In this document: positions 1 through 30,758 of the stretch, piece after piece
Layout: each line of letters starts with the position of its first letter
Position numbering within the stretch: the stretch's first letter is position 1
Origin: Candidatus Nanosynbacter lyticus
GTDB lineage: Bacteria; Patescibacteriota; Saccharimonadia; Saccharimonadales; Saccharimonadaceae
Direction of reading: 5' to 3'
Assembly (NCBI RefSeq): GCF_000803625.1
Contig: NZ_CP007496.1
Span: 240,001 to 272,000, forward strand
DNA: 32,000 bases
Program-made: the position numbers and the translations under genes
The notes under the pieces: generated by a model
The model's database searches: none
The model's input: only the letters and a program-made list of their open reading frames with translations
Told to the model about the DNA's origin: nothing

Positions 1-623
1 ATGACTTTCTGGGATAGCTTACCCTTGACTATCAGCCAGGTACCGTCTGGGTAATCTACTGAGAATCTCTTCTCGACGATGATTTTTACTGGAACACTAT
101 CAACAGCACAGCAACTTATGACATAGCGCGCAATGTAAAAGTAATCGTATCCGTAGTTTTTTAGTAGGTCATTTGAAACGAAGCCAGTGATAGTAATATC
201 TTTATTATCGAAGTAAGAGGCTTGTTTGCAGGAATTTATGGCAGTTTTCCAGCGGTTTATTGAGATTGTGGAGCTATTTTCTGTTGGTTTTGGAATTTCG
301 CAGCGACTCTCAGCTTCAATAATTGCAGGATTCTCTCTTTGGGCGAGGCTGCTTGGCGATAGCGTCTTTGGCGGTAGTGTATAGCCGATTGTTAGGATAA
401 TAATCGCCAAGTAGGAGCTGACCTTTACTCTCCTTAAATTAAAGACAGATCCGTTAAGGGACTGTCTGCTTTTAAATTGCAACATTATATCAATAAGAAA
501 AAGTGCAATTCCAACTATACTGATTATAATGGCAAATTGATGATAACGTGGATGAGTGTAAAAACCCAGATGATCGCGGCTGGCTAATAGGAGGATATAG
601 CCACAGACCAAAATCCCGCCCAT
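1..623 (-). CDS. TIGR03943/DUF1980-family membrane protein, 3'-partial (runs off the window start)
   Basis: Not in the ORF track because no stop lies in the window. My translation from ATG 623-621 is MGGILVCGYILLLASRDHLGFYTHPRYHQFAIIISIVGIALFLID... with two N-terminal TM helices. Further on is ...YFYIARYVISCCAVDSVPVKIIV, the paired-Cys motif I associate with this family. It lies directly downstream of the DUF318 permease, as in the conserved two-gene pair. Confidence 0.6.
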   Translation of the reverse strand, partial: MGGILVCGYILLLASRDHLGFYTHPRYHQFAIIISIVGIALFLIDIMLQFKSRQSLNGSVFNLRRVKVSSYLAIIILTIGYTLPPKTLSPSSLAQRENPAIIEAESRCEIPKPTENSSTISINRWKTAINSCKQASYFDNKDITITGFVSNDLLKNYGYDYFYIARYVISCCAVDSVPVKIIVEKRFSVDYPDGTWLIVKGKLSQKV

Positions 624-636
624 CGACCTTAGTAAA

Positions 637-1680
637 TTAGCGAACATATAAGTTAACTCCCACGCCCGCCATGAAAGACAGCGCGAATATTATTAGTACA
701 ATTGTTGCTATAAAGTGCCAACGGAAAGTAGTCTTCATAAGTATAATCATTTTTATGTCTACCATTGGTCCGGATAATAAGAATGACAAGATTGAGCCGG
801 CAGTAAAACTACGTGCATAAGCTAAGGCAAAAAACGCGTCTATGCTTGAGCATATTGAAACAACAAAGCTGAGGATGATCATGGCGATAACTGACAGAAA
901 AATGTCACCACCGACGGTGTTAATGATGAATCGTGGTACAAATACTTGGGTGGCTGCGGCGATGCTAGCACCTATGACTAGTATGGTAAATAACTGCCAG
1001 AACTCGTTGCGTGAGTTGTCAAATATTTTTAGAAAAGACGAATCGTTTTTATGAGCGTGGCAATACTCTTTAAAGTCTGGATTAAGTATAGAATCTTCTT
1101 TGAATAAACTAACAATGAAAGCTGTTATTTGGACGATAATCAGCGCAAAAATGACTCTCCACCAGACCATCTGCGGCTGAAAACTGAAGGCCGTCATAGT
1201 AGCGACGATGGTTATGGGGTTGAGGATTGGTGCGGCAAATAGAAAACTGATGACGTCAGCAGGTTTAAGGCCCTGCGCCATCAGGCTGCGTGCAACCGGC
1301 ACATTGCCACATTCACAGACCGGCAAGGCTATTCCAAGCGTTGACAGCACAATTCGCCTGAGGAAGGTATTTTTTGGTAGTATCTTGAGCAGTTTGTCTG
1401 ATGGTAAAAATTTTCTAATTAGTGCCGATACAATTATTCCCAGTAGCAGAAATGGTGTAGCTTCGACGATTACACTCAGTGTGAGCGTAAGAAAATCTTG
1501 AAGCGATGGCAGTAGTTTTGTAAACAAATCTACAAGTTCTCCATTAACTAACATAGTGCTAAATTTTGAACTGAGGTAATATATAGTAATCACAAAAATC
1601 CCAAAAACAATCCAGTTTATTAATTCCTGGTTGGCGTATAGTATTTTCTTTAAGCGGCCGTCTGATAGCTTGCGCACCAT
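637..1680 (-). CDS. Predicted permease, UPF0718/DUF318 (ArsP_1-like) family
   Basis: 347-aa polytopic membrane ORF. It has the LPVCECGNVPVARSL Cys motif typical of DUF318 permeases and is paired with the downstream DUF1980-like gene. Confidence 0.7.
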   Translation of the reverse strand: MVRKLSDGRLKKILYANQELINWIVFGIFVITIYYLSSKFSTMLVNGELVDLFTKLLPSLQDFLTLTLSVIVEATPFLLLGIIVSALIRKFLPSDKLLKILPKNTFLRRIVLSTLGIALPVCECGNVPVARSLMAQGLKPADVISFLFAAPILNPITIVATMTAFSFQPQMVWWRVIFALIIVQITAFIVSLFKEDSILNPDFKEYCHAHKNDSSFLKIFDNSRNEFWQLFTILVIGASIAAATQVFVPRFIINTVGGDIFLSVIAMIILSFVVSICSSIDAFFALAYARSFTAGSILSFLLSGPMVDIKMIILMKTTFRWHFIATIVLIIFALSFMAGVGVNLYVR

Positions 1681-1687
1681 ATATAAA

Positions 1688-1693
1688 ATTATA
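1688..1693 (-). promoter_or_regulatory. -10 box TATAAT, 7 nt upstream of the permease ATG (1680)
   Basis: Minus strand reads gcggTATAATtttatatATG. No SD is present. Confidence 0.4.
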
Positions 1694-1704
1694 CCGCATG
1701 CTTA

Positions 1705-1713
1705 TGTTATACT
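1705..1713 (+). promoter_or_regulatory. Extended -10 TGtTATACT, 8 nt upstream of ATG 1722
   Basis: Sequence is atgttatactaaatcattATG. No SD. It is divergent from the permease promoter within a 41-bp intergenic region. Confidence 0.45.
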
Positions 1714-1721
1714 AAATCATT

Positions 1722-2840
1722 ATGAAGCATCTTTTACATTCGCATCATCCGTTTCGGATTTTTTGGTTTTCAGTGCTATTAACCATGGCTTTAGGTGGTC
1801 TAATTTTTACGCAAATGGGGCTTAATGGCTTATGGCTATTTGCCATTTTAGTTATTTTGGAAGTAACTTTTAGTTTTGATAATGCAGTAATCAATAGTAA
1901 GGTTCTGGCGGGGATGGGTCAGGTTTGGCAGAAAATATTCTTGACAGTCGGTATTTTTGTAGCGGTGTTTGTTGTGCGATTTATATTGCCAATTGTTATT
2001 GTGATGATTGCGAGTGGCCACGGTTTTATGGAAGTGGTTGATTTGGCTCTTCATAAGCCAACAGAATATGGTCAGATTTTGCATGAAGCATCGCCGATGA
2101 TTGACGCGTTTGGCGGGGCGTTTTTAATCATGATTGGACTTAGTTATTTTATTGATTACAACAAGCGTATTCACTGGATGCGGCATGTTGAACCGTGGAT
2201 GGCTAAGGCTGGGCGATTTGAGAACTTTAAGGTTTGTATAATGCTCAGCGTGGCTGCTGTACTGTATTTTACAGTTGACGCTCCACATAAATCACTAGTG
2301 TTGATCTCGGCAGTGCTCGGAATTATGCTTCATATTGGGCTAGAGTTGTTTGGCTCATTCTTTCATGAAGATAGCGCAAAATCTATCAAAATTAAGACTG
2401 GTTGGGCGGCGTTTGCTAGCCTGCTGTATTTGGAGGTGTTGGATGCCAGCTTTAGTTTTGATGGCGTAATTGGCGCATTTGCTATCACTAATAGTGTGTT
2501 ATTAATTGTGGCCGGCCTGGGTGCTGGGGCAATTTGGGTACGGTCATTGACTGTTTATCTGTTGCGAACTGGCGCTCTCAGTAAATATAAGTATCTGGAA
2601 AATGGTGCACACTGGGCGATTATGGCGTTGGGTATGATGATGATCGCTAAGCTGTTTCAGCTGGAATTGCCGGAATGGGCGACGGGAGGACTGGGGTTGT
2701 TGTTTGTGAGCCTGGCGGTTGGTAGCAGTATATTAGAGATGCGATCAATTAATCTGCAGGAGGCGGCGATGACTAAACTTCATCAAGCCGAGCAGAAAAT
2801 AAAAAATGGCGCATCAAAAATTGTACCTAAAAAACGGTAG
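1722..2840 (+). CDS. DUF475/TerC-like integral membrane protein
   Basis: 372-aa multi-TM ORF. It has duplicated motifs LEVTFSFDNAVINS and LEVLDASFSFDGVIGAF characteristic of DUF475/TerC-type proteins. Confidence 0.6.
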   Translation: MKHLLHSHHPFRIFWFSVLLTMALGGLIFTQMGLNGLWLFAILVILEVTFSFDNAVINSKVLAGMGQVWQKIFLTVGIFVAVFVVRFILPIVIVMIASGHGFMEVVDLALHKPTEYGQILHEASPMIDAFGGAFLIMIGLSYFIDYNKRIHWMRHVEPWMAKAGRFENFKVCIMLSVAAVLYFTVDAPHKSLVLISAVLGIMLHIGLELFGSFFHEDSAKSIKIKTGWAAFASLLYLEVLDASFSFDGVIGAFAITNSVLLIVAGLGAGAIWVRSLTVYLLRTGALSKYKYLENGAHWAIMALGMMMIAKLFQLELPEWATGGLGLLFVSLAVGSSILEMRSINLQEAAMTKLHQAEQKIKNGASKIVPKKR

Positions 2841-2859
2841 TAAGTATTATAATTTGTCG

Positions 2860-3420
2860 CTAAAGCTTGACGCTAAATGACTCAATTGTTCCATCAAGAA
2901 ACTTATTTATTAGCTTAATTGACTCTGGAAAAATCCAGCTATGAAGGATTTTTTGTTCGTCAGAATTAAATTTGCTTAAAACAAAGTCAACGCTACCGAT
3001 TTGTTTTCGCAGTAAACTGTCGGTGCCGATACGAATATGCCAAAAGTCAGAACCAATGTGAGCATGAAGCGATTTCAAACCGTTGCTGCCAGCGTCGCGG
3101 CCGCCTTTACGGACGCGGATTTTACCAAAATCAAGGTCAGTGTCATCATGAATAATTAGTAAATCATCCAGTGTCAGTTTATAAAAATCCATGATCGCTC
3201 GCGCGGCAATGCCGACCTCGTTATAATATGTGTTTGGTTTAACTAGTAGTATCTTTTCTCCAGAAAGATTCAGCTCGGCAATGTCGGCGGCAAATTTTGG
3301 CTTATTTATGAAATTTACATTTAGCTCAGCAGCAAATTTATCAATAGTCAAAAAGCCAGCATTATGTCTGGTATTGGTATATTTATCGCCAGGATTGCCC
3401 AGTGCTAGAATAACTTTCAT
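2860..3420 (-). CDS. pth: Peptidyl-tRNA hydrolase
   Basis: 186 aa. N-terminus is MKVILALGNPGDKYTNTRHNAGF. The central HDDTDLDFGKIRVRKGG and GSNGLKS motifs are typical of Pth. Confidence 0.9.
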   Translation of the reverse strand: MKVILALGNPGDKYTNTRHNAGFLTIDKFAAELNVNFINKPKFAADIAELNLSGEKILLVKPNTYYNEVGIAARAIMDFYKLTLDDLLIIHDDTDLDFGKIRVRKGGRDAGSNGLKSLHAHIGSDFWHIRIGTDSLLRKQIGSVDFVLSKFNSDEQKILHSWIFPESIKLINKFLDGTIESFSVKL

Positions 3421-3426
3421 AGACCT

Positions 3427-3435
3427 AGTATATCA
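3427..3435 (-). promoter_or_regulatory. Extended -10 TGaTATACT, 6 nt upstream of the pth ATG
   Basis: Minus strand reads ggTGaTATACTaggtctATG. No SD. Confidence 0.45.
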
Positions 3436-3451
3436 CCTGAGGCTAATAGCG

Positions 3452-3457
3452 TATAAT
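3452..3457 (+). promoter_or_regulatory. -10 box TATAAT, 6 nt upstream of ATG 3464
   Basis: Sequence is gcgTATAATaagcatATGgca. No SD. Confidence 0.4.
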
Positions 3458-3463
3458 AAGCAT

Positions 3464-4432
3464 ATGGCAAAGCGCGACAATGATTTGGAGTTTAGTGTTA
3501 ATGCGGCGTTTGACGAAGCGCGGGCGGTTGTTGACAAAGTGCCGCTATATTTGGTCAATGGATCTTTGGGTGCTGGAAAAACCAGCGTCCTTGAATTCTT
3601 ATTGCAACAAAGTGACTATAAAGGCTCACGGGTAATTGAAAATGAGTATGCTAATGAAAATATCGACGGCTATCGGCTGGAGGGATTGGCGGAGATGGTG
3701 ACGACGTTGGCTGGCGATTGCGTCTGCTGCTCGTCGAAACACGCATTGACGCGGATGCTGCTGGATTTTTGCCGCAATTCCCCGGCGCCAGTGTTTATCG
3801 AAGCGACGGGTGTGGCGCGAACGATGAGCTTAGTTGAGAAACTGATAAATGCACAAATCTTCAATAAGTATGAGCTGATGCAGAGTTTTTACGTAATTGA
3901 CGCTTACGAGATTTTACACGGGATTGAGCCGGCGCACGAGGTTGAATTACAGGCGGCGGACGTGATTTTGGTGACCAAGGAGGATTTACTAAATAACAAT
4001 GAACGAGCTGAATACGGCATAAAACTCTCCGCCCTGCCCTACGCCAAGGTGCTGAGCGCGCCGCACGGTCGGTTTGACCTAAGTAAATTAACCACGCCGT
4101 CGGGGCTGCTAGCGTTTTTTGACACGTATGACGGCGAGCTGGTCGTGCCGGACAATCCGACGTATGCGGTGCTGGATATTTCTGGTATGAAAATTGCTGC
4201 GGCGACTCTGGAAAAAATTTGGCCGGAACTTTTTGACACTTATAAACTTAGGCGGATGAAAGGCTGTTTTATTGACGATAATGGTGTGCGACATCATTTG
4301 GAGGCAACGAAAAATCAGATTCAAATAGCTAATTCTGCGGCGGAAGAGCCAGCAAAAATTGTGCTAATTGGTGAACGTGCGGACGAAATTACGCGTGAAG
4401 TTTTGTCTGCGCAATTGATGATGTTTGAATAA
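3464..4432 (+). CDS. COG0523 (CobW/YjiA/ZigA-type) G3E GTPase, putative metallochaperone
   Basis: P-loop NGSLGAGKTSVL and the CxCC metal motif GDCVCCSS. I moved the start to M79 of track ORF 3230..4432, because the upstream part overlaps pth antisense and a TATAAT box lies 6 nt upstream of ATG 3464. Confidence 0.8.
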   Translation: MAKRDNDLEFSVNAAFDEARAVVDKVPLYLVNGSLGAGKTSVLEFLLQQSDYKGSRVIENEYANENIDGYRLEGLAEMVTTLAGDCVCCSSKHALTRMLLDFCRNSPAPVFIEATGVARTMSLVEKLINAQIFNKYELMQSFYVIDAYEILHGIEPAHEVELQAADVILVTKEDLLNNNERAEYGIKLSALPYAKVLSAPHGRFDLSKLTTPSGLLAFFDTYDGELVVPDNPTYAVLDISGMKIAAATLEKIWPELFDTYKLRRMKGCFIDDNGVRHHLEATKNQIQIANSAAEEPAKIVLIGERADEITREVLSAQLMMFE

Positions 4433-4445
4433 AAGTTCGCTTTCG
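4432..4445. repeat. Direct repeat, left copy (aaagttcgctttcg); 13/14 match to 5091-5104
   Basis: On the minus strand this is CGAAAGCGAACUUU, which supplies G12-A14 and the 3' strand of hammerhead stem III. Confidence 0.6.
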
Positions 4446-4489
4446 TCGTTTCCGACTCATCAGCATAGACACGCATCTATGGAGCAAAC
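4435..4489 (-). ncRNA. Hammerhead self-cleaving ribozyme motif, type III topology
   Basis: Minus strand reads GUUUGCU-C / CAUAGA-UGCGUG-UCUAUG / CUGAUGA / GUCG-GAAA-CGAC / GAA / AGCGAAC. All invariant core nucleotides are present, stems I and II are closed hairpins, and stem III is 7 bp and open. Predicted cleavage is 3' of C4482. Confidence 0.8.
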
Positions 4490-4491
4490 AC

Positions 4492-4505
4492 GACAAGTGA
4501 GAGAA
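4492..4505. repeat. Inverted repeat, left arm (gacaagtgagagaa); pairs with 5076-5090
   Basis: The reverse complement of 5076-5090 (ttctcttcacttgtc) is gacaagtgaagagaa. That gives a 14/15 match with a single 1-nt bulge. Confidence 0.6.
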
Positions 4506-4553
4506 TCTGACGGAGAGTCTACAGACTCGCCATGTTTGCGATGTTATTGCCTG

Positions 4554-4943
4554 CTACTCCTGGTTGTTGGAGAAGTAGACGACAATGCAAGGGTCGGTGG
4601 TAGCTACCCACGGGTTGGATTCTGTGTAGCTGAATTCAACGTCACGAACCTTCTCCTCAAGGCTTTGGAGCTCTTTAAGGAGCTCCTTGCGGCACTCAGA
4701 ATTGTTTGCGACTGCTGAGGTGATTAGAAGGTCATGGTCATAGATACAGATCTCGTCTGGAAGCTTACCTTTCATAAGGTATTCATTGATTGCGGCTTTC
4801 CTGACTTCCTCGCAGAACTCAGAGATCCCCTCCTCGAAGAAGCGGGAGACCTCATTTTTTCTGAGTTCCTCCATCCTCTTCTCTGTTTCCTTGAGGTTGG
4901 CAGCCCTCTTTGCCTGGACCTCGGGGGTAATGAATGTAGGCAT
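4554..4943 (-). CDS. Hypothetical protein, 129 aa (orphan, island-encoded)
   Basis: It is the longest ORF in the island and is preceded by GGGGAGAGAG about 7 nt upstream of the ATG. It has no motif I recognise. Its codon choice is rich in GAG, AAG, CTC and TTC, unlike the neighbouring genes. Confidence 0.5.
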   Translation of the reverse strand: MPTFITPEVQAKRAANLKETEKRMEELRKNEVSRFFEEGISEFCEEVRKAAINEYLMKGKLPDEICIYDHDLLITSAVANNSECRKELLKELQSLEEKVRDVEFSYTESNPWVATTDPCIVVYFSNNQE

Positions 4944-5075
4944 TGCAGTACTCTCTCCCCATCTGGGCGAACGCCCGTGTTGGAAACACTGATCAACGCC
5001 CGGATGGCATAGATCGAAGATGAGGTTTCGGGATACTTCTTAAAATATCGCAAAATCTCACCTTCGTCTTATAGG

Positions 5076-5090
5076 TTCTCTTCACTTGTC
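5076..5090. repeat. Inverted repeat, right arm (ttctcttcacttgtc)
   Basis: Complementary to 4492-4505. It directly abuts the right direct repeat at 5091-5104. Confidence 0.6.
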
Positions 5091-5104
5091 AAAGTACGCT
5101 TTCG
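5091..5104. repeat. Direct repeat, right copy (aaagtacgctttcg)
   Basis: 13/14 identical to 4432-4445. On the minus strand it reads CGAAAGCGUACUUU and lies in the leader of the island transcript. Confidence 0.6.
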
Positions 5105-5146
5105 GACAAGGAATAAATCTCAACTTGTCAACAAAAGCTGTATTCA

Positions 5147-5175
5147 TTTATATCACTAATAGGATAAAATGTCAA
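5147..5175 (-). promoter_or_regulatory. Sigma70-type promoter: TTGACA - 17 nt - TATAAA
   Basis: Minus strand reads TTGACA(5175-5170) ttttatcctattagtga TATAAA(5152-5147). It is the only clear -35/-10 promoter I found in the window. It would give a leader of about 200 nt before the 129-aa ORF. Confidence 0.5.
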
Positions 5176-5198
5176 TAGATTTTGTCAAGAATAAAGTA

Positions 5199-6767
5199 TC
5201 ATGTGTGTTTTTCAGCGTTTTTGGCCTGCTTGTAAGCTTTGGTGACTGGTGCCAAACCGCGCACAACGCGTTCGCGGTTGGCTTTTAATTGCTTTTCATC
5301 GCGGAAAGATAGTTTAATTGGCGTTCCCGCAAAATTGAAAGCTTCACGCAAAGTTCGCTCCAAATAGCGTTTATAGCTCCAGTGGACAAATTTCAGATTA
5401 CTGCCATATATAACAAACCACGGCGGAGCAACGTCAGTCTGGACAATGTAGCGCAGCTTCGGGTGTGAATTTTTCAGACCAGCTGGCGGATGTGCGGCGA
5501 TGGCTTTCTGTAAAATGTCGTTTAAGGCACGAGTTTTACATTCTTGGCGACGACGCTTATAGATATCAAGCGCTAGGTCGAATAACTTGGCGACATTCTG
5601 TCCAGTGACAGAAGAGGTAAATATTAACGGTGCGTACGGCGTGAACTTGAAGTTATAGCTGATTTGTGGGGCAATTTCATCATGAGTATAGGCGTCTTTG
5701 TCCTCAACGGAATCCCACTTGCTGACAACCAGAACAAGCCCCTTGCCCGCTTCGTCGATGATGCCAGCCAGCCGTTGATCTAATTGAACGTTCAATTCGT
5801 TAACATCCATCAAGAGAAAACAGACGTCGGCTTCGTTGATGGCCTGCATGGTGCGCAGGACCGAGAACTTTTCGATACCGGTCTCTTGCTTGCCCTGGCG
5901 GCGAATGCCAGCGGTGTCGAGTAGCTCGATGGTCTGGCCGTGGTAGCGGACTTGGACGCGGTTGACGTCGCGGGTGGTGCCAGCGACGTTGGCGACGATG
6001 GCTTGCTGCTTGCCTGCCAAGGTGTTGAACAGGTTGCTTTTGCCGACATTTGGCCGGCCGATGAGGGCAACGCGAATAATGTCGTCAGGCGCAGTTTCAG
6101 TGGCTGGCGGAATGAGATCGGCGATGTTGTCGAGCAGCTCGGAGATGCCGATGTTATGCTCGGTGGAAGTTTTGATGATGGTTTTAATGCCAAGTCGTTT
6201 GAATTCGTCAACGTGAAGAGATTCTTTCAGATCAGCTTTATTGGCGATTAAAATGACGGGCTTGCCGCTCTTTAAGGCTTTTTTGGCGAGTTGGCGGTCG
6301 GCGTCTGATGGATAGACGGTGGAGTCGACCATGACGAGAATGACGTCGGCAGCGGCAGAAGCATCGGCGATTTGGTCTTGGATGGTGGCTTCGAATTCGT
6401 CTTCGGCGGGTTTGAGGCCGGCGGTGTCGATGAGCCAGAATTCGGCGGTTGCACTCGCGCCACGCTCCTTCGCTGGAGTACTCTTTTCGCTCAAATCTCC
6501 ACTGGAGATTTGTTGCGAGCGTTCGGCTGAAACGCCCGCTTCTCGCGAACATTTCACGGCCTCCAGCGTAGGAGGTGTCGCGTCTGCCGCATTCTCATTA
6601 GGAGATGACGCGTGGCGTTTATATGAGACCTTACCAACAACGTTGTCGCGGGTGGTGCCGGCCTCACGGGCGACTATAGCTGTGCGAGAGCGTGTTAAAC
6701 GGTTAAACATCGAGCTTTTGCCGACGTTGGCTTGACCAATAATAGCGACAGTTGGTAATTTTGACAT
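5199..6767 (-). CDS. der: Ribosome-associated GTPase Der (EngA) carrying a ~56-aa in-frame insertion
   Basis: Two tandem GTPase domains are present. The first has GQANVGKSS, DTAG and NKAD. The second has GRPNVGKSN, DTAGIRR and SKWD. A KH-like C-terminus follows. The extra segment ASSPNENAAD...GASATAE lies between the switch I region (GTTRD) and FWLIDTAG. Confidence 0.9.
   Translation of the reverse strand: MSKLPTVAIIGQANVGKSSMFNRLTRSRTAIVAREAGTTRDNVVGKVSYKRHASSPNENAADATPPTLEAVKCSREAGVSAERSQQISSGDLSEKSTPAKERGASATAEFWLIDTAGLKPAEDEFEATIQDQIADASAAADVILVMVDSTVYPSDADRQLAKKALKSGKPVILIANKADLKESLHVDEFKRLGIKTIIKTSTEHNIGISELLDNIADLIPPATETAPDDIIRVALIGRPNVGKSNLFNTLAGKQQAIVANVAGTTRDVNRVQVRYHGQTIELLDTAGIRRQGKQETGIEKFSVLRTMQAINEADVCFLLMDVNELNVQLDQRLAGIIDEAGKGLVLVVSKWDSVEDKDAYTHDEIAPQISYNFKFTPYAPLIFTSSVTGQNVAKLFDLALDIYKRRRQECKTRALNDILQKAIAAHPPAGLKNSHPKLRYIVQTDVAPPWFVIYGSNLKFVHWSYKRYLERTLREAFNFAGTPIKLSFRDEKQLKANRERVVRGLAPVTKAYKQAKNAEKHT
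6471..6590 (+). repeat. GC-rich 120-bp repeat, copy A, inside der (antisense to der); full insert about 6444-6611
   Basis: The alignment to 30200-30319 is ungapped, with 100 of 120 positions identical by my hand count. It contains the hairpin AAATCTCC-ACT-GGAGATTT at 6493-6511. Confidence 0.75.
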
Positions 6768-6775
6768 GATTATAG

Positions 6776-6784
6776 ATTATAACA
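6776..6784 (-). promoter_or_regulatory. Extended -10 TGtTATAAT, 8 nt upstream of the der ATG
   Basis: Minus strand reads cTGtTATAATctataatcATG. No SD. Confidence 0.45.
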
Positions 6785-6825
6785 GTTTTAGGGTGTTTTG
6801 GCGAGGAGGCGGTTGTTGGTGGCTA

Positions 6826-7347
6826 TTAGTTGTGTAATATCTTAGACTTAATATCTTTGAGGCGATGATTAAGCCAGCGGCTGCATGAGCTCTCTATTTT
6901 CAAATAGTCAAATATATAGTTTGAGCTGTCGTGCTTAAACTTCCTCATCGACAGATCCCCCATTTCAGCATTATTGACGGCTTGGGTATTGTTTGGAAAG
7001 TCAGCAATATATATGGCTAAGGATTGTCTGTGTATGAGTATATAGTAGTGATTTTCAGAATTATGTATACAGTAGTAGTCTTGTTTTACTGTGGGTAATG
7101 TTTCTAGATTAAGTTTTTCTGCAATATTTTCTAAACCTACTATTACCCTACCATAATCAGAGACCTGTTCATTTATTATTTCAGGAAGAGATTTATTTTT
7201 GCTTCCTGAACACAATTCTAAAATACTCTCGCGCCTTTCTTTTATGGAGTCAATTTCTGGCGTTAATGTTTGTAGGTCCAACCAAGCTTCTGCGGCCTGT
7301 CCGTGGCTTATGTCTGTCTCTTTCCGCGGTGATTCTGGTGATTTCAT
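6826..7347 (-). CDS. Hypothetical protein, 173 aa
   Basis: An AT-rich ORF with no overlapping competitor and no motif I recognise. Confidence 0.45.
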   Translation of the reverse strand: MKSPESPRKETDISHGQAAEAWLDLQTLTPEIDSIKERRESILELCSGSKNKSLPEIINEQVSDYGRVIVGLENIAEKLNLETLPTVKQDYYCIHNSENHYYILIHRQSLAIYIADFPNNTQAVNNAEMGDLSMRKFKHDSSNYIFDYLKIESSCSRWLNHRLKDIKSKILHN

Positions 7348-7418
7348 GATAAGTTATTCTTTTTATAAATTTAAATACAGAAGATATTCTACAATGTTTT
7401 TTATCAAATGTAAATAGG

Positions 7419-8123
7419 CTAGTTGGAGATTTGTTCTTCCTTCCACTCACCCCTCCTAAGTTCTCCGAGGGAATATTTCCCAAAATCCGTACGATGGAGT
7501 TTCTTGACGGTGTAGCCTAGTACGTCAAACGTACGGCGGATTTGACGATTGCGCCCTTCGCTCATCTGAACTATCCAGCGGTAGTCATCGCCATCATGCT
7601 GTCTTTCGAGGGTTAATTGACTGGGTCCGTCTGGTAGCTGCACGCCAAAATCATTAATCATCTGCCGATGGAGAGGCTGCAGCGGCTTGTCAATTGTAAC
7701 TAAGTAGCGCTTAATCTTATAGAAAGACGGGTGTGTCATGCTATGCGCAAAATCACCGTCATTGGTGAGTAGAATTAGGCCAGAGCTGTCTTTGTCCAAG
7801 CGACCGACGGGTTTGAGGTGATGGAGGTGTTTTGGCAAGAGCTTGTAAATTGTTGGCACGCCGCCCTGGGAGGCACGTGAGCAGAGATAGCCTGTGGGTT
7901 TATGCAGAACGATCAGCTTCTTTGGCTGAATTTCTAAAGTTTGACTATTGTAGGTAATCTGATTTGTGCTAGAAATCTGCTGTCCTAATCTGGCTGGCTG
8001 CCCGTCAACTATGATCTTCCCTTTCTCGATTAGTTCGTCAGCCTTACGGCGAGAAACACCCAAACTTAGCGCCACAAATTTATTAAGGCGCCAAGAGTTT
8101 TGGTCGTTGTGAGAGTCTGTCAT
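7419..8123 (-). CDS. Pseudouridine synthase, RsuA/RluB family
   Basis: N-terminal S4-like segment (RLNKFVALSLGVSRRKADELIEKGKIIVDG) plus the catalytic motif GRLDKDSSGLILLTNDG. Its ATG overlaps the upstream gene's stop as ATGA. Confidence 0.85.
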   Translation of the reverse strand: MTDSHNDQNSWRLNKFVALSLGVSRRKADELIEKGKIIVDGQPARLGQQISSTNQITYNSQTLEIQPKKLIVLHKPTGYLCSRASQGGVPTIYKLLPKHLHHLKPVGRLDKDSSGLILLTNDGDFAHSMTHPSFYKIKRYLVTIDKPLQPLHRQMINDFGVQLPDGPSQLTLERQHDGDDYRWIVQMSEGRNRQIRRTFDVLGYTVKKLHRTDFGKYSLGELRRGEWKEEQISN

Positions 8124-9076
8124 TGCTCTGGAGTTATTGATGGAGGTTGTGGTAGTTGTGAGGCTTCTGGCGTTTGCACGGGAGCGGTCTGTGGTTGGGC
8201 TACTTCTGCGCCAACCTGAGGCTCAACAGGTGTCTGGGCGACCTGGGGTGGCGTGACTGGGTTTGCCGGCTGGGCTATTGATGCTGGATTAGCGTCTAAT
8301 TCCCTAGCCATGAGCTGAGAGATATCAACAGAATTTTGCGAACTGTCAGCGGGTAGCGGTTGGATAATGCGGTCACCTAGTCCAGATGGGCGCGGCACCG
8401 ACGAAGAGAAAGGCGCTGTAGGTTGCGGTAATGTTGTTGGCTGTGCTGGCGGTGTCGGCATAGCTACTGGTGTTGGCTGCTGAACTGGTTGCGGTGCTTG
8501 AGCTTGTGACTGATAGGTTTGCTGTGTTTGTTGTGCAAACTGATTTGCTGTAGGTAATGTTGGTGTGATAGTTGGAGCGGTCTGTGGTTGTGGAGACAAT
8601 GAAGACACGTCGGGTCTAGTTATTGGTTGTGGTGCTGGAGCTTGTGGCTCTGGCGTATGTGCAGGAGCTGGCTGTGAAACTGGTACGGGATTTGTTCCGA
8701 CACCAGGCAAATCGCCTAAAGCCTCATGGACTGCCCTGACAACATCTTCAATGCCCACTTGAGATTTAACCAAATATCGATCAGCTCCAAGCTGTTCGCC
8801 ACGCTTTCGCTGGTCCTCTGAAGATAGGGCTGTCATGATGATTACTTTTACGTCTTTTGTTTCTGTCGTTGAGCGCAGAATGTCTAGCATATCAAAGCCG
8901 GAAATCTTTGGCATCATCACGTCACTTAAGATCAATTGCGGACGTTCTTTGATTGCCATGGCCAGAGCTTCTTCGCCGTCGCCCGCCGAAACGATATCGT
9001 AGCCCTCCGCCAAAAGCCGCACGCCGTAAATCTCACGTAAGCTTTTGTCGTCCTCGACCAATAAAATTTTTGTCAT
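8120..9076 (-). CDS. Response regulator: REC domain plus ~190-aa Pro/Gln-rich tail, with no recognisable output domain
   Basis: N-terminus is MTKILLVEDDKSLREIY...LILSDVMMPKISGFDML...IMTAL...KS. The C-terminal two thirds are low-complexity P/Q/T/A with repeated QPQTAP. Confidence 0.8.
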   Translation of the reverse strand: MTKILLVEDDKSLREIYGVRLLAEGYDIVSAGDGEEALAMAIKERPQLILSDVMMPKISGFDMLDILRSTTETKDVKVIIMTALSSEDQRKRGEQLGADRYLVKSQVGIEDVVRAVHEALGDLPGVGTNPVPVSQPAPAHTPEPQAPAPQPITRPDVSSLSPQPQTAPTITPTLPTANQFAQQTQQTYQSQAQAPQPVQQPTPVAMPTPPAQPTTLPQPTAPFSSSVPRPSGLGDRIIQPLPADSSQNSVDISQLMARELDANPASIAQPANPVTPPQVAQTPVEPQVGAEVAQPQTAPVQTPEASQLPQPPSITPEQ

Positions 9077-9128
9077 ATACCTATACTATACTGGAGTTTT
9101 GACAAAAAATCTATAGTACTTATGGCTA

Positions 9129-11087
9129 TTATTCGCGACCAGGAACTGATAGCTGCTGCCGGTTTCTCTTTATCTCTTCTTCAATTTCAGCCAGGGTTGG
9201 CTCGGTAGAAGTTTTAGGTGCTTGTAGATTTGCCGTTTGAGGTTCTGGGCTGGGTGTAGCCGACACCTGAGCAGAAACTGCGCCGTTGGTAATATCTGGA
9301 GATTCAATAATAGATTCTTCCGGCCGATTTTCAGGCTTAATTTCAATATTTTCAGCGGTAGCGGGAGATGGGTCTGCTTGGTCTGAGGATTCTGCGTTTA
9401 TGTTCTCCAAACGCTGAGTAGCTTCCGCGCTACTGACTCGTGGAATTTCTAGGTAAAATGTACTGCCCTCTTTATATTTACTCTCAACACGTAAGTTGCC
9501 TGACATTGTTTCAGCTAAGCGGCGGCTTAAGTACAGCCCCAAGCCGGTACCACCAATTTCGCGGGTGTCAGAATTGTCAACGCGATAAAATTTCTGGAAT
9601 AAATGCGGAATGTCCTCGGCGGGAATGCCTATGCCGCTATCTTTAACGCTTATAGAGATTTGCTTATCGTCACCAGTTATATCTACGGTGACATCTCCAG
9701 ATGGCGTGTATTTGATGGCGTTTTCTATAAGATTACTAGCAACCTCCCTAAAATGGTCAGGGTCAATATTAGCATAGAATATTGGCTGTAGCGATTTTTC
9801 TTTACCTTCGTCAATCGTGTCTGGAGCAAAGATATAATTTAGCTGCTTTTCGTTGGCTTTTGGCGCTAGTCCTTCAAAAATTTCTTTCAGGAATTCATTG
9901 ATATTGATAATCTTTGGATTATTTTTCATTCGGCCGTCTTCTACTTTACTAATGTCAAGTAGGTCTTGAAATAGCCGACCCAGATGCTGCGCTGATTCGT
10001 GGGCTTTAGTGATGAAGTCGCGCGCTTTTTCGTCGATATTGGCAGTGGCTGGATTTAAGGCTAATCCCAAATACCCTTCAATGGAGGCAACTGGTGTGCG
10101 CATCTCGTGGCTGGCGGTAGAAATGAATTCAGCCTGCTCACGTTCTTCGGCCTTTTCTTTGGTAATGTCTCGGAATACCACAATAACCCCTTCTCCGTCT
10201 GTGCCAACCGGAGAGCTGACTACTGAAACAAGGATTCGTTTTTCGGAACTGGTTAATAGGAAGAATTTATCACTGTGGGCTGGCTGGTTTTTAGATAAAG
10301 ATTGAGAGATTGGATTTTCAAGCTCGTCAACTTCCTTGCCATCTGAAGCAACCAGTTTCAGAACGCTTTTCCAATTCAGCCCAAGCGCGTCGCCTTGCTC
10401 CCAGCCGATAATTTGTTGAGCTGATGGGTTGATTAGTTCAATATTGCCGTCTTTAGAAATAGCCAGAACGCCGTCATTGATAGCATTGATAACTACATCA
10501 GATTTACCTTCAACGGCAGAGAGCTTATTCTCTAGGTTAGACACACTATTATCACTCTGCTGGCGGCGACCCCAGAGAATAAGACTAAATATTAGAGGCA
10601 GGAATCCAAAAAATATATGTCCAATGATAAACTGCGTATTTATGCCACTCTGGGTGACGAAGGCGATGATTTGCAAGACTACCAGAAGCGCCATTATGCC
10701 TAGAATAGCTATACCAAAGAATCCAGCGAAAATTGCCACAATGATCCACATCGCTAAAAATGGCGAGACGACGCCACCACTAGTAATGATGGTGACGGCG
10801 CTTACGGCGACGGTTAATAAATATACAAAAATACCGACACTGGTTTCGTGTTTTTTAGGCAGCCAGAAACATAGAATAAGCATAATTAAGCTACCGATTG
10901 CTGCTACTCCAGCCGCTTTGTCAGAGACGGATAGGCCTATCGGCAGTTGATAGCCTGTAGGAATAAACCTTGCCCATGCGTATAACAGAATAATCGTAAA
11001 ACAACTTAATAGTGCTACTTCACACAACCGCCTTAACCAAAATCTGGAAATTGTGTGAGGCTTACAGCAAATCCCGCCCTTTTTCAT
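9129..11087 (-). CDS. Sensor histidine kinase (multi-TM N-terminus, PAS-like, HisKA, HATPase_c, acidic/Pro-rich tail)
   Basis: H-box STASHEMRTPVASIEGY, N-box NLIENAIKYT, G-boxes DSGIGIP and GTGLGLYLS. Confidence 0.85.
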   Translation of the reverse strand: MKKGGICCKPHTISRFWLRRLCEVALLSCFTIILLYAWARFIPTGYQLPIGLSVSDKAAGVAAIGSLIMLILCFWLPKKHETSVGIFVYLLTVAVSAVTIITSGGVVSPFLAMWIIVAIFAGFFGIAILGIMALLVVLQIIAFVTQSGINTQFIIGHIFFGFLPLIFSLILWGRRQQSDNSVSNLENKLSAVEGKSDVVINAINDGVLAISKDGNIELINPSAQQIIGWEQGDALGLNWKSVLKLVASDGKEVDELENPISQSLSKNQPAHSDKFFLLTSSEKRILVSVVSSPVGTDGEGVIVVFRDITKEKAEEREQAEFISTASHEMRTPVASIEGYLGLALNPATANIDEKARDFITKAHESAQHLGRLFQDLLDISKVEDGRMKNNPKIININEFLKEIFEGLAPKANEKQLNYIFAPDTIDEGKEKSLQPIFYANIDPDHFREVASNLIENAIKYTPSGDVTVDITGDDKQISISVKDSGIGIPAEDIPHLFQKFYRVDNSDTREIGGTGLGLYLSRRLAETMSGNLRVESKYKEGSTFYLEIPRVSSAEATQRLENINAESSDQADPSPATAENIEIKPENRPEESIIESPDITNGAVSAQVSATPSPEPQTANLQAPKTSTEPTLAEIEEEIKRNRQQLSVPGRE

Positions 11088-11131
11088 ACCTTTTATTATG
11101 GCGAATTTTCAGGAAAATCTCAAGAGTTATG

Positions 11132-11140
11132 TGGTATAGT
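11132..11140 (+). promoter_or_regulatory. Extended -10 TGgTATAGT, 6 nt upstream of ATG 11147
   Basis: Sequence is gTGgTATAGTaattgcATGaat. No SD. Confidence 0.45.
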
Positions 11141-11146
11141 AATTGC

Positions 11147-12355
11147 ATGAATAATGATTTGGATCGGAATCAAAATGATAATCTCACAAATAATGAATCG
11201 CCCACCCTGCCTAATGCTGGAAATGTAAAAGATCAACAAACTTCTATGGAATCCTCAACAGCCACGGGTCCTTCGTTTGATAAGAGTATGGATAAGAATA
11301 AAGCATTTAAGTATGCAGTATTTTATGTGATTATTTCTGTTATTGCGATATTTGCGGGGATTTATATTTTTGGGCAAGGGTTAAGTAATCGTGGTGATAA
11401 TTTTGGGAATTATAGCGTTTTCTTAGCTACTGAATTTTTGGTCATTGGCGTTATATATAGCTCTCTGCTTTTGGCTGGATCTATGATCATACAATATAAA
11501 AAAGGGCGCTACCATTTCATCGACCGGGCGGTGAAGAATAGTCCCAAGGCTGCTTTTTATGCTGCAATAGCTGTAGTGATATTCTTAACGTTGCTCTGGG
11601 GGTCTGATAGACCTATGACAATATTCACACTCCTTCTCTCTCCTGTCGCCGCTTTTGCTTCCGCTCTGGAGATTATTAATGAAGAGTCGGTGCGACGATA
11701 TGCCATTAATATGTCGATTACTGATGGAAAAATAGAGAAAAAACACGCCCTTTTATATACCATAATTTACATAATTCTCTGTCTTCTTGTGCCGGTGTTT
11801 TTTGCTATTGTTGTATTTGATAGTCGTGATGTACTATATGCTGGTGCTGGATTAGCGTCGCTCGTTGAGGTCATATTTCCTATTGCGGCTATGATTATAG
11901 GGATGCTTATCTGTATTTCGATTTATTGGTATCAATCTGGGCGGTATTGGATTGCGAATTATCTAGTGAAAAACGGCAAATTAGTTAACTCATTTTTTAC
12001 CGCTATAATTTTTTACACGATTATGTCTTTCTTGAGCCCGTCAGCTGATATGGAAGATAAATATTCAATAATATGGCTTCCTATATCTTTGATGTTCTTG
12101 TTTTTTAAATTTATTGCCTTAATCAGCCCGCTGGTGGCGCTAGCGTATGTCTCTTGGATTACAGCGTCGTGTTATATAGGAGGTCGTCGCATAAAGTCTA
12201 TTGAAGAGAACGTAGAAAAACGTCATTTAGATTATGCGGAGCATTACGAGAATCAACCACTTTCATATAAGTGGATCAAGCCTATGATCATTACCATTAT
12301 TGCGATTATCGTCTTGCTTGCAATACTGATTCCGTTATTAATTGCGATAGGATAA
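11147..12355 (+). CDS. Polytopic membrane protein, unknown family (paralog A)
   Basis: I moved the start to M46 of track ORF 11012..12355, because the upstream part overlaps the HK gene. The N-terminus is N/D/Q-rich and is followed by about 10 TM helices. It shares the motifs ISIYWYQSGRYWI and VKNSPKA with the next gene. Confidence 0.6.
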   Translation: MNNDLDRNQNDNLTNNESPTLPNAGNVKDQQTSMESSTATGPSFDKSMDKNKAFKYAVFYVIISVIAIFAGIYIFGQGLSNRGDNFGNYSVFLATEFLVIGVIYSSLLLAGSMIIQYKKGRYHFIDRAVKNSPKAAFYAAIAVVIFLTLLWGSDRPMTIFTLLLSPVAAFASALEIINEESVRRYAINMSITDGKIEKKHALLYTIIYIILCLLVPVFFAIVVFDSRDVLYAGAGLASLVEVIFPIAAMIIGMLICISIYWYQSGRYWIANYLVKNGKLVNSFFTAIIFYTIMSFLSPSADMEDKYSIIWLPISLMFLFFKFIALISPLVALAYVSWITASCYIGGRRIKSIEENVEKRHLDYAEHYENQPLSYKWIKPMIITIIAIIVLLAILIPLLIAIG

Positions 12356-12390
12356 TAATTTGAAAATATAATAGTCAGGAGAATAATTCT

Positions 12391-13383: not shown

Positions 13384-13417
13384 CATAGAGAAAAAGTAGA
13401 CAAACCCTCCCTTTCTA

Positions 13418-13426
13418 TGGTATAAT
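13418..13426 (+). promoter_or_regulatory. Extended -10 TGgTATAAT upstream of tRNA-Glu
   Basis: Sequence is ctaTGgTATAATccatggagttac followed by the tRNA, 12 nt before the mature 5' end. Confidence 0.5.
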
Positions 13427-13438
13427 CCATGGAGTTAC

Positions 13439-13513
13439 GGCCCTATCGTCTAGCGGTTAGGACACCAGGTTCTCATCCTGGCAACCCGGGTTCGATTCCC
13501 GGTGGGGTCACCA
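13439..13513 (+). tRNA. tRNA-Glu (anticodon CUC), CCA encoded
   Basis: Hand-folded cloverleaf. Acceptor stem is GGCCCTA/TGGGGTC, anticodon stem CCAGG/CCTGG with loop TTCTCAT, and T-arm CCGGG-TTCGATT-CCCGG. The 3' end is ACCA. Confidence 0.9.
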
Positions 13514-13523
13514 AAAATATTTT

Positions 13524-13547
13524 GGCGGAGCTTTTTCCGTCTTTTTT
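13524..13547 (+). terminator. Intrinsic terminator after tRNA-Glu
   Basis: GGCGGA-gctttt-TCCGTC (6 bp including one G-U) followed by TTTTTT. It abuts the stop of the convergent REC gene. Confidence 0.55.
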
Positions 13548-13549
13548 AT

Positions 13550-13933: not shown

Positions 13934-13941
13934 AATTCCTC

Positions 13942-16562: not shown

Positions 16563-16572
16563 GCTTATGCTT

Positions 16573-16581
16573 AGTATAGCA
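16573..16581 (-). promoter_or_regulatory. Extended -10 TGcTATACT, 10 nt upstream of ATG 16562
   Basis: Minus strand reads aaaTGcTATACTaagcataagcATG. Confidence 0.4.
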
Positions 16582-16600
16582 TTTTCGGCGCATGAATAAA

Positions 16601-18043: not shown

Positions 18044-18049
18044 GAATAA

Positions 18050-18058: not shown

Positions 18059-18072
18059 CGTTAACTAATATG

Positions 18073-28877: not shown

Positions 28878-30758
28878 ATGATAGCCGACATTCACATCAC
28901 CGAAAAAAGTTTTGGCGACAAGACGTTGATGCGCGACGTCAAGTTTAGCGTGGATGATGGTGAGAAGGTTGGTGTGGTCGGCCGTAATGGCGTCGGTAAG
29001 TCGACATTGTTTGGCATCTTGGCGGGCACGGACACCGACTATACTGGTGAGGTGATTTTTCGGCGCGGCATCACCGTGGCCAGTACGGCGCAGGAGCATC
29101 ATGGTTTGGGCGATCAGACGGTGCTGAGCTACATTTTGGCGGGGCTACCAGAATATGCGAGCTTAAAGAAAATTATTGATGAATATCCCGAGACCATGGG
29201 CGATAATATGCGTAAAATTGAGGAGTACACGCAGGCACTGGAGCGATTTGACCAGAAAGGGTTTTACCAGATCGAGGAGAAGATTGCCCGAGAGCTCGAT
29301 AATTTTCAGCTGAGCGGGTGCGGCGAGCGGCCGCTTGGTTCCCTGTCGGGTGGTCAGAAGCGGCTGGTGGAGATTGTGAAGATTATGCATGCGGGGGCAC
29401 ATTTGGCGCTGATCGACGAGCCGACTAATCACATGGATTACGTTGCCAAGCAGCAGTTTATCGACTGGATGAGTTCGCAACCGCGCCAGGCCATGTTGAT
29501 CATCACCCATGACCGCGATGTGTTAGGCCGGGTGGATCGAATTGTTGAACTTAAAGACGGCCAAGCGGTCAGCTACCGCGGTAATTATGACGCCTACCTC
29601 AAGCAAAACGCTCAGGCGACGGCGGCGGGCATGAATAATTTTGAGCAAGTCGAGAAGCGGATAACTAACCTCAAACAAAAAGTGCTGGATTATCAGCGGC
29701 TGAAGGAAAAGTCGCGTAACCCCGGCACCATCCAAAAGTTTAAGCGGCTGGAACATGAGGCGCGGGCCGAGCTGGCGGAATTATCAGAGATGGACAAGCC
29801 GACGTTTTGGATCGACAAGCAGTCGGCTGGGCAGCTTGATTATAAGTCGGCTGAGCGCTACGGCAAGTTCAAGGCGCGCAATATCCGGCTGTCGATGAAG
29901 GACGCGGCCAGTCGCAGTCAGCATGTGCTGGTGCGAGTTGAGGACGCGGCGGTTGGCGTTGGCGAAAGGATATTGTTTGAGGGGGTGAATATTGATCTGC
30001 GCGAGGGCGAGGCGGTGGAGCTGCGCGGCCGTAACGGCGCCGGCAAGACGACGCTGATTCGGATGTTGTTGGGGCAGCGGCGAGGTTCGGACTCCAGTCT
30101 CTCTGGCAAGTCGATGGTTTCGCGGACGGTGTTGCCGGACGCATTCGACTTGGAGGAGACGGCTGGAAGTCGAACCGCGGCAAGCGCTCCGCAGTCCTCC
30201 GCCAGAGCACACTCTTCGCTCAAATCTCCACCGGAGATTTTTCGCAAGCGTTCGGCTGAAACGTCCGCTACTCGCGAACGTTCCACAGTCTCTGGCGTAG
30301 AAGGTGTCGCACCTGCCGCTCCCATCCTTTACTCCGGCAACCTCTTCCTTGACCCGCAGGTGCGGGTGGGCGTGTATGAGCAAGAGATTGATGAGCGGTA
30401 TTTGGCGGATCCGCTGCAGGCGTCGATTGAGAAGTTGTATCTCAGCCGCGACCTGCCGATTTCTGATACTAAGATTCGCCAACTACTGGCTGACTATTTG
30501 TTCACCGAAGCCGATCGGATGACGCCGCTGGCTCGCCTGTCGGGTGGCCAAAAAGCGCGCTTTCAGATTATCGCTATGCTAGCAAATGACCCGCAGCTGC
30601 TGATTTTGGATGAGCCGACCAACCATCTTGACCTGCCGAGCATCGAGGAGCTGGAGACGGCGCTGGCGAAATATTCTGGCGCTATCCTGTACGTTAGCCA
30701 CGACAATTATTTCCGCCAAGAAATCGGCGGCGAGGTCGTGCAGATTGGCGCAGCATAA
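28878..30758 (+). CDS. ABC-F family ATPase (two ABC domains, no TMD) carrying a ~80-aa in-frame insertion in domain 2
   Basis: Domain 1 has GRNGVGKST, LSGGQKRLV and LALIDEPTNHMD. Domain 2 has GRNGAGKTT, LSGGQKARF and LLILDEPTNHLD. An extra S/A/R-rich segment, RRGSDSS...GVAPAAP, lies shortly after the second Walker A motif. Confidence 0.88.
   Translation: MIADIHITEKSFGDKTLMRDVKFSVDDGEKVGVVGRNGVGKSTLFGILAGTDTDYTGEVIFRRGITVASTAQEHHGLGDQTVLSYILAGLPEYASLKKIIDEYPETMGDNMRKIEEYTQALERFDQKGFYQIEEKIARELDNFQLSGCGERPLGSLSGGQKRLVEIVKIMHAGAHLALIDEPTNHMDYVAKQQFIDWMSSQPRQAMLIITHDRDVLGRVDRIVELKDGQAVSYRGNYDAYLKQNAQATAAGMNNFEQVEKRITNLKQKVLDYQRLKEKSRNPGTIQKFKRLEHEARAELAELSEMDKPTFWIDKQSAGQLDYKSAERYGKFKARNIRLSMKDAASRSQHVLVRVEDAAVGVGERILFEGVNIDLREGEAVELRGRNGAGKTTLIRMLLGQRRGSDSSLSGKSMVSRTVLPDAFDLEETAGSRTAASAPQSSARAHSSLKSPPEIFRKRSAETSATRERSTVSGVEGVAPAAPILYSGNLFLDPQVRVGVYEQEIDERYLADPLQASIEKLYLSRDLPISDTKIRQLLADYLFTEADRMTPLARLSGGQKARFQIIAMLANDPQLLILDEPTNHLDLPSIEELETALAKYSGAILYVSHDNYFRQEIGGEVVQIGAA
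30200..30319 (+). repeat. GC-rich 120-bp repeat, copy B, inside the ABC-F gene (sense to it); full insert about 30078-30321
   Basis: The alignment to 6471-6590 is ungapped at about 83% identity. It contains the hairpin AAATCTCC-ACC-GGAGATTT at 30222-30240. Confidence 0.75.

Follow-up and report, generated by a model that had tools for sequence, protein, structure and literature searches.

The window analysed here, 32,000 nucleotides of the Candidatus Nanosynbacter lyticus genome (contig NZ_CP007496.1, positions 240,001 to 272,000), includes der, the gene of a ribosome-biogenesis GTPase, and a gene encoding an ABC-F ATPase. Both genes host in frame one copy of the same GC-rich palindromic repeat, denominated here element A. 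In the ABC-F gene this is adjoined by a second hairpin element, called element B (Table 1). The two A copies match without gaps at 113 of 140 positions, and a repeat search retrieved them as a direct repeat (D1) of 140 nt. BLAST aligns them inside the window with an E value of 1.3e-33, and their identity of 0.81 compares with a best value of 0.44 among 500 shuffles. An earlier reading of the letters, referred to below as the sequence-only reading, had counted 100 identities over 120 bp (6471-6590 vs 30200-30319). The recount gives exactly the same figure, but the repeat extends to 140 bp. The GC content of about 60% that it had set against a 40-45% background holds for both copies (0.60) and for the window (0.442), but the host genes themselves reach 0.51-0.55.

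The element is read in opposite directions by the two hosts. One DNA strand is read antisense in Der and sense in the ABC-F protein, where frame +1 of the element is used, and the peptides originally quoted for the two proteins are correct. Homology of the two inserts at the protein level is therefore ruled out. The overlapping open reading frames (ORFs) reported at 6319..6735 on the plus strand and at 29918..30325 on the minus strand do exist. Stop-free frames occur on both strands as described; more precisely, four of the six frames lack stops in the consensus (shuffle P ~0.017). A covariance model built from 44 element A copies scores 158.6 bits on the der copy and 150.2 bits on the ABC-F copy. 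Applied to the window and to 437 kb of related loci, the model added no copies. Covariance model and inverted-repeat search detected in the window no hairpin inserts besides the two copies of A and element B. The right end of the ABC-F copy (30308-30321) is 86% complementary to host sequence located 29 nt downstream (30351-30364, inverted repeat I11), a match that may be fortuitous or may belong to the target site.

Table 1. Position of the two host genes, of elements A and B and of the parts of element A in the window
Feature	Position	Strand	Remarks
der, ribosome-biogenesis GTPase, 522 aa	5199..6767	-	Pfam MMR_HSR1 x2 and KH_dom-like; PDB alignment to B. subtilis Der
Element A copy in der	6451..6590	-	Der residues 60-106; the strand is the better-folding one, and is der sense
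Closing stem, left arm (terminal inverted repeat), der copy	6451..6478		Pairs with 6561-6587; inverted repeat I5
Hairpin 1, AAATCTCC-ACT-GGAGATTT	6493..6511		Same motif at 30222-30240
Hairpin 2, 12-bp stem with G.U pairs on der-sense strand	6528..6556	-	Same at 30257-30285
Closing stem, right arm, der copy	6561..6587		Fold, covariation, inverted-repeat search
ABC-F ATPase gene, 626 aa	28878..30758	+	Pfam; PDB matches to EttA, YheS, Uup
Element B, second hairpin element, ~95 bp, adjoining A	30085..30179	+	ABC-F residues 403-434; inverted repeat I10
Element A copy in ABC-F gene	30180..30319	-	ABC-F residues 435-481; better-folding strand antisense to gene
Closing-stem arms, ABC-F copy	30180-30207 and 30290-30316		

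The ABC-F protein of the window matches TM7x_01415 of Candidatus Nanosynbacter lyticus at 100% identity, and the identical Der protein is encoded on eight contigs of public assemblies, four of which, among the matches listed, are oral-type Logan runs. This identifies the window as TM7x or as a strain nearly identical to it. In Der the insert falls between switch I (GTTRD) and G3 (FWLIDTAG) of GTPase domain 1, and is located between residues 40 and 52 of the B. subtilis Der structure, in the beta2-beta3 turn. In the AlphaFold model residues 55-104 are coil with a predicted local distance difference test (pLDDT) below 50, between flanking strands 44-51 and 106-114. Model and PDB alignment thus agree with the suggestion that the Der insert sits in a surface loop, here a low-confidence loop between strands beta2 and beta3. 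The lengthening of Der by about 56 aa is right relative to B. subtilis Der, but amounts to 46-48 aa relative to the nearest empty orthologue. The ABC-F insert would lie, by manual alignment to EttA, after the Walker-A helix of the second ATPase domain (nucleotide-binding domain 2, NBD2); the AlphaFold model of this protein derives from a shallow alignment, and has a mean pLDDT of 32.7. The insert of about 80 aa described for this protein measures 83 aa (residues 399-481), but is a composite, element B (95 bp) followed by A, rather than one repeat. The peptides encoded by the elements are of low complexity and rich in S, A, E and R. About 46 aa long, the A insert most likely forms a surface loop, hydrophilic and disordered, through which the ribosome would read. 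Tryptic peptides predicted over the inserts are SQQISSGDLSEK and EAGVSAER for Der, SAETSATR and SPPEIFR for ABC-F.

As anticipated by the sequence-only reading, the two copies of the window are members of a larger family, found in unrelated genes and at one intergenic site. A search of 185,579 GTDB species genomes with a 20-nt hairpin pattern returned 63 loci. About 52 are in Saccharibacteria genomes or metagenome-assembled genomes (MAGs), and the remainder match only 20-odd nt of the pattern. Metagenome contigs scanned with a second, independent sequence block of element A added at least 120 loci. In total at least ~170 copies are known, always at the same few sites. In the GTDB scan the element was found in the sense orientation in ABC-F (23 loci in 23 GTDB species) and TopA (1 locus), antisense in LeuRS (18 loci) and Der (8 species), and in five loci outside coding sequences, between the convergent ppa and relA/spoT genes. 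Hosts contributed by metagenome contigs, among the matches listed, are a fusion of RNase HII and UPF0102 (YraN) in 31 contigs, in which A occupies the inter-domain linker, and the dihydrouridine synthase Dus in 3 contigs. Der, ABC-F, LeuRS, TopA, RNase HII-YraN and Dus ORFs carrying the element are all intact. Copies are present in the complete genomes CP128407.1 and NZ_CP076459.1 and in the TM7x protein set. No genome of the GTDB scan has more than three exact matches to the pattern; allowing for variant hairpins and for sites seen only in metagenomes, we estimate 2-5 copies per genome, a low number also because the covariance model adds no copies in the window or in the related loci. The family is confined to Saccharibacteria, both oral and gut. 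IMG/VR viral contigs contain no true copy, the two matches being 20-nt chance hits, and a phage or viral origin was accordingly rejected.

Intergenic copies consist of B plus A (L017 3134-3359; also L006, L015, L037 and L040, with L037 lacking one arm of B). Oriented so as to fold well, they begin 31 nt beyond the stop codon of relA/spoT, and a role as 3' structure or terminator is possible. In one metagenome contig (L114, 13439-13570) the N-terminus of Der is fused to the C-terminus of ABC-F through element A. The fusion most likely arose by misassembly at the repeat, which would mean that element A can break Saccharibacteria assemblies.

Presence and absence of the element could be compared at the exact der site, which is polymorphic among Der proteins 86-88% identical. 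The genome of Nanosynbacter sp. TM7-074 is collinear with positions 1-19003 of the window at ~93% DNA identity, but the alignment breaks at 6446-6600, where TM7-074 has 15 nt in place of 153 nt. Its Der protein (476 aa, 88% identical) has an empty loop, which reads VSYKRHASSPEETAQAEFWLIDTAG. A search with full-length Der, in which close relatives differ in length, distinguished several states of the loop: empty (TM7-074, P0054), A (TM7x), A+B (P0004), and B plus the left arm of A (P0044), the core of A having been removed in the latter by an in-frame internal deletion of 102 nt. An empty site is present in a complete genome, CP158487.1. In distant Saccharibacteria Der carries no homologous peptide, but either nothing or unrelated inserts; the segment is therefore not an old domain. 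Inserts of the second type, found in P0082, P0087, P0104, P0113 and P0056, include a repeated WREAVGDDFGGE motif and SSDLRERSERIFEDDRSG, and may represent further families of elements.

Element A is one of three breaks in the alignment to TM7-074. The others are a divergent small ORF (4554-4943, minus strand), in the region of which positions 4539-4912 fail to align between TM7x and TM7-074, and a two-gene island. The latter, a 2.26-kb segment (11127-13391) absent from TM7-074, includes two ORFs (11012-12355 and 12391-13383) with no precomputed Pfam hits, the products of which begin with N/D-rich repeats (family D2). Just 3' of der, at 4950-5029 on the minus strand, there is a full-length match to the RAGATH-10 RNA (77.9 bits, E 1.6e-13), a small RNA motif with no assigned function. 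Two tRNA genes lie on the plus strand at 13439-13510 and 22160-22243.

Element A is predicted to fold by pairing of both ends into a closing stem of ~23 bp, which encloses two hairpins. The ends are imperfect terminal inverted repeats with arms of ~23-28 nt. Hairpin 1, spotted by the sequence-only reading at the correct positions in both copies, is a perfect 8-bp stem, AAATCTCC-N3-GGAGATTT. Its 8 pairs are invariant in 44 copies, but the motif is the pattern with which those copies were searched, and variants are present in ABC-F genes sampled by protein similarity. The second stem (CGTTCG...CGAAC(G)) is real, but longer than stated, being of 12 bp. The der copy, on the der-sense strand which folds best, has a folding energy of -71.7 kcal/mol, with a z-score of -6.6 as RNA and -6.8 with DNA parameters. 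Overall, z-scores range from -4.3 to -6.6 on the better-folding strand, and are -5.2 and -2.1 on the other. In 44 distinct copies 92.5% of the cells are in standard pairs, against 37-52% with slid partners; the opposite strand pairs less (87.1%). In hairpin 2 paired cells are 98.7% on the der-sense strand and 87.3% on the other. Positions with G.U on one strand have A.C on the complementary one; over the whole element, wobble cells are 138 on the better-folding strand and 24 on the other. Sixteen pairs changed on both sides, a number reached in none of 500 shuffles. Four of these changes are in hairpin 2, and the closing stem has compensatory changes in 12 of its 23 pairs; for example, CTGGAG/CTCCAG of Der copies corresponds to CCAGAG/CTCTGG of ABC-F copies. 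Since the aligned copies are related to each other and one of them supplied the structure, the counts lend support but do not amount to proof. At the gathering threshold no Rfam 15 family matches element A, and the single chance match is to mir-1267 (E 3.5).

Although the consensus is open in four frames, coding copies are without exception read in +1 or -1. In the outer arms paired positions satisfy i+j = 138, a multiple of three, and inversion about the arms thus swaps the two frames. Flips of the TM7x copies between the outer arms, when simulated, are stop-free and give the other type of peptide, resembling natural copies of opposite orientation. Among the matches listed in the metagenome sample, both orientations occur at the same position in ABC-F, LeuRS, TopA and RNase HII-YraN in different lineages. 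For RNase HII-YraN the DNA alignment shows inversion, between GGGTTCGC and GCGAACCC, of the complete element together with its arms. The two forms fall into a single sequence subfamily, an indication that the element was inverted in situ. In LeuRS and ABC-F copies of opposite orientation belong to different subfamilies, which points to replacement or independent insertion rather than to a flip. The flanks of the nearest contigs of opposite orientation are only 92-95% identical. Orientation changes are hence differences between lineages, and rapid phase variation is unsupported. Orientations are mixed in CP128407.1. A dependence of the insertion strand on the direction of replication was rejected, as intergenic and LeuRS copies about 35 kb apart on the same contigs have opposite orientation.

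When 173 copies were clustered at no more than 4 differences in 102 nt (metagenome copies being those among the matches listed), several subfamilies crossed the borders of host genes: one is shared by Der, TopA, ABC-F and Dus, another by RNase HII-YraN, TopA and LeuRS, a third by ABC-F and the intergenic site. Together with shared neighbouring modules, described below, these subfamilies are the strongest evidence for recent movement or conversion between loci. Homogenisation of ABC-F and intergenic copies within a genome was not seen.

The element changes slowly relative to its surroundings. In loci selected by the pattern, divergence is 2-6.5% in its core (the 88 nt not covered by the pattern) and 32-38% at flanking 4-fold degenerate sites, a contrast inflated by ascertainment through an exact pattern. 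Where ABC-F genes were sampled solely for protein similarity, the element diverges by 8.5-12.8%, flanking 4-fold sites by 23-28%, and all flanking sites by 8.5-10%. A very strong nucleotide conservation (5-17x below neutral) was thus discarded as partly an ascertainment effect, the unbiased sample giving ~2.5x. This residual slowness suggests either constraint at the nucleotide level, exerted on the hairpins, or recent copying, rather than neutral junk. The peptide appears unconstrained: within the element, 4-fold sites do not exceed the other sites in variability (0.4-7% in pattern-selected loci, 3.6-17% in the unbiased sample), and in the ABC-F host frame 957 changes are nonsynonymous and 91 synonymous. 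Hidden coding constraint in another frame was rejected, since the frames richest in synonymous changes contain stops.

Element A is in places accompanied by other modules. Element B folds as a single long hairpin. ABC-F proteins otherwise 92-97% identical to that of the window differ at the loop, which may contain A only (594 aa, P0234), B+A (626 aa, window), B split by a module of ~70 aa (684-687 aa), or a different module (642-644 aa). In the Der proteins of L032 and L071 B abuts A at the same end, but in inverted orientation relative to it. Nested hairpin modules thus build up in these loops. Additional modules recur beside A in several hosts, among which ABC-F (P0200, P0224, P0210), TopA (L102, L123, L121), Dus (L190) and LeuRS (L154). 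They include ASHKTIRDPLKPAQIFSE.PLAP, the ~70-aa module SRKHL...QKKSLTSQLEY..., GDAGFADDVREA and TSDTNSTDQLKSRATSQKKSG. TopA, Dus and some ABC-F proteins have the module ASHKTIRDP...PLAP ahead of A, and LeuRS and TopA share one flanking peptide after A.

We favour the view, with a probability of roughly 0.7, that element A is a non-autonomous, selfish coding palindrome, GC-rich and about 140 bp long, similar to the Rickettsia palindromic elements (RPEs) and to transposable elements of the miniature inverted-repeat type (MITEs), and tolerated as a disordered surface loop. The sequence-only reading had already compared the repeat to RPEs as an element acting at the DNA level and inserted in frame, and the further copies in unrelated genes and at an intergenic site, polymorphism at der, fold, loop position and the lack of a homologous peptide in distant orthologues all speak for the comparison. 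In addition to what it had proposed, the element is reversible within the host frame, recurs at a small fixed set of sites and nests with other modules. Copies would be placed in frame in a few permissive loops or linkers of housekeeping proteins. The ribosome would read straight through the element, and the sequence of the encoded peptide would not itself be under selection. Being open in frames +1 and -1, which are exchanged by inversion about its own arms, the element may sit or flip either way without breaking the host gene. Spread from gene to gene and changes of orientation most plausibly involve recombination on the inverted arms, be it in-situ inversion, ectopic conversion or transposition between copies, and selection would leave copies only in tolerant sites.

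Several points weigh against this interpretation. No transposase or parent insertion sequence (IS) was seen in the loci examined, but no genome-wide search was made. No clear target-site duplication is visible at the empty/filled der pair or at RNase HII-YraN junctions, where divergence makes the boundaries hard to place. Copies are few (2-5 per genome) and recur at the same small set of sites, unlike what is expected of a freely transposing MITE or of RPE-1. Even in the unbiased sample the element evolves ~2.5x more slowly than flanking 4-fold sites. Lastly, the chimeric contig L114 calls for caution with individual metagenome contigs.

In an alternative reading the element is a nucleic acid structure maintained by selection on the host rather than selfish DNA, such as an mRNA or DNA hairpin that controls expression, stability or translational pausing in core genes or binds a protein, the peptide being a by-product. 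Divergence of the core below neutral (2-6.5% vs 32-38% in pattern-selected loci, ~10% vs 23-28% in the unbiased sample), conservation independent of codon position, wobble pairs favouring one strand (138 cells vs 24), a GC content of 60% kept in a 44% GC genome and the intergenic copy lying 31 nt past the relA/spoT stop in the well-folding orientation would all fit. We nevertheless deem such a role unlikely. One gene may carry either orientation, so that the host mRNA does not always bear the better-folding strand, and der of a close relative does without the element; both facts argue against a simple role at the mRNA level. Moreover, an in-frame internal deletion is tolerated (P0044), no Rfam family was matched, and low divergence can stem also from recent copying between loci.

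A second alternative is a site-specific element of the homing type, moved by a dedicated recombinase or nuclease recognising these gene sites. This would account for repeated hits at the same positions in both orientations. In LeuRS, as in ABC-F, one and the same position is indeed occupied by different subfamilies in opposite orientations, the same loops collect elements B, C and D, and elements are more alike between species than their flanks, with no obvious co-conversion tract. The flanks of the different host sites, however, have no evident common target motif, no candidate enzyme was identified, and recurrence is explained as well by replacement of a resident copy through arm homology, combined with selection for the few permissive sites. 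We regard this scenario as improbable. Three further possibilities, a protein segment that is old and specific to the lineage, a coincidence due to low complexity and an artefact of assembly, can be dismissed on the results obtained. The peptides are of low complexity and one metagenome contig (L114) is chimeric, but opposite strands are translated, which makes protein homology impossible. As to coincidence, which the sequence-only reading had named as a potential objection to its own proposal, shuffles reach at most 44% identity, while the BLAST E value is 1e-33. Copies reside in the complete genomes CP128407.1 and NZ_CP076459.1, and the empty site in the complete genome CP158487.1.

We put forward tentatively also a broader picture, which we consider possible rather than probable. 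Elements A and B and the insert segments C-F would form a system of 'flip-tolerant coding palindromes', kept intact at the nucleotide level, invertible in place, and exchanged among fixed loops of essential proteins, either through recombination directed by the arms or through a dedicated enzyme. If so, each lineage would gain alternative peptide loops, and the elements would be maintained and possibly useful cassettes, serving in loop diversification or in RNA- or DNA-level control of core genes, rather than decaying junk.

Among known systems RPEs are the closest. According to the passages on them in PMC10969869 (citing Ogata et al. 2000 Science 290:347; 2002 Genome Res 12:808), RPEs are palindromic sequences of 100-150 bp found in frame in unrelated housekeeping genes of a host-dependent bacterium with a reduced genome. 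The same passages describe insertion at fold-compatible positions and several families, and report 44 copies in R. conorii, with no transposase known. Element A is likewise a palindrome, of 140 bp, with no ORF of its own, inserted in frame in unrelated genes at a fold-compatible loop and polymorphic for presence and absence. It differs in being found in Patescibacteria, and is likened to RPEs by features alone, membership by sequence not being claimed. Its copies are 2-5 per genome, against the 44 indicated for R. conorii in those passages (PMC10969869), and its sites are recurrent and fixed rather than many and dispersed. A site may hold either orientation, the two frames being exchanged by flipping; its GC richness contrasts with a genome of 44% GC, and further elements are nested beside it. 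Bacterial MITEs such as Correia/NEMIS and ERIC, including intragenic ERIC/BOX with ORFs, are similarly short, non-autonomous, bounded by terminal inverted repeats and strongly folded, and are occasionally fused in frame to host ORFs (PMC10969869). In contrast, element A has no recognised target-site duplication or parent IS, and is overwhelmingly intragenic and in frame, not intergenic. Repetitive extragenic palindromic (REP) sequences and REPINs, mobilised by RAYT transposases, share with A hairpin repeats, maintained symmetry and a bias of structure towards one strand, as expected for a single-stranded intermediate, but REPs are extragenic and present in tens to hundreds of copies, whereas A is mostly intragenic and has few. 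No RAYT gene turned up in element A loci, but no search aimed at RAYT was made. The GC-rich palindromic clusters of yeast mitochondria and the byp elements are ~30-60 nt long, and byp are skipped by the ribosome. Like A, they are mobile GC-rich hairpins of a reduced genome of lower GC content and can enter coding genes; A is longer and keeps the frame open, which implies reading through. No literature linking Saccharibacteria, Nanosynbacter or the candidate phyla radiation to palindromic elements, MITEs or in-frame repeats was found, subscription journals lying outside the coverage.

Patescibacteria are a huge and poorly understood lineage, characterized by reduced genomes and host-dependent life. 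In-frame coding palindromes have been treated until now nearly as a peculiarity of Rickettsia. A 2024 review on MITEs considers RPEs an exceptional case, and a similar process conceivable in other prokaryotes (PMC10969869). At a practical level, the element accounts for length heterogeneity and for some misassemblies in Saccharibacteria MAGs, and its states offer markers for strain typing. Since TM7x and its relatives are now cultivable and genetically tractable (PMC10633639), mobility, translation and effects on fitness are directly testable. The family would provide a concrete case of one DNA segment translated in either orientation at the same site, and bears on how essential proteins such as Der, LeuRS, TopA and ABC-F gain disordered loops specific to a lineage. 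The finding in Patescibacteria of an apparently unrelated family suggests that coding palindromes arise time and again where genomes are reduced and host-dependent and leave little room between genes.

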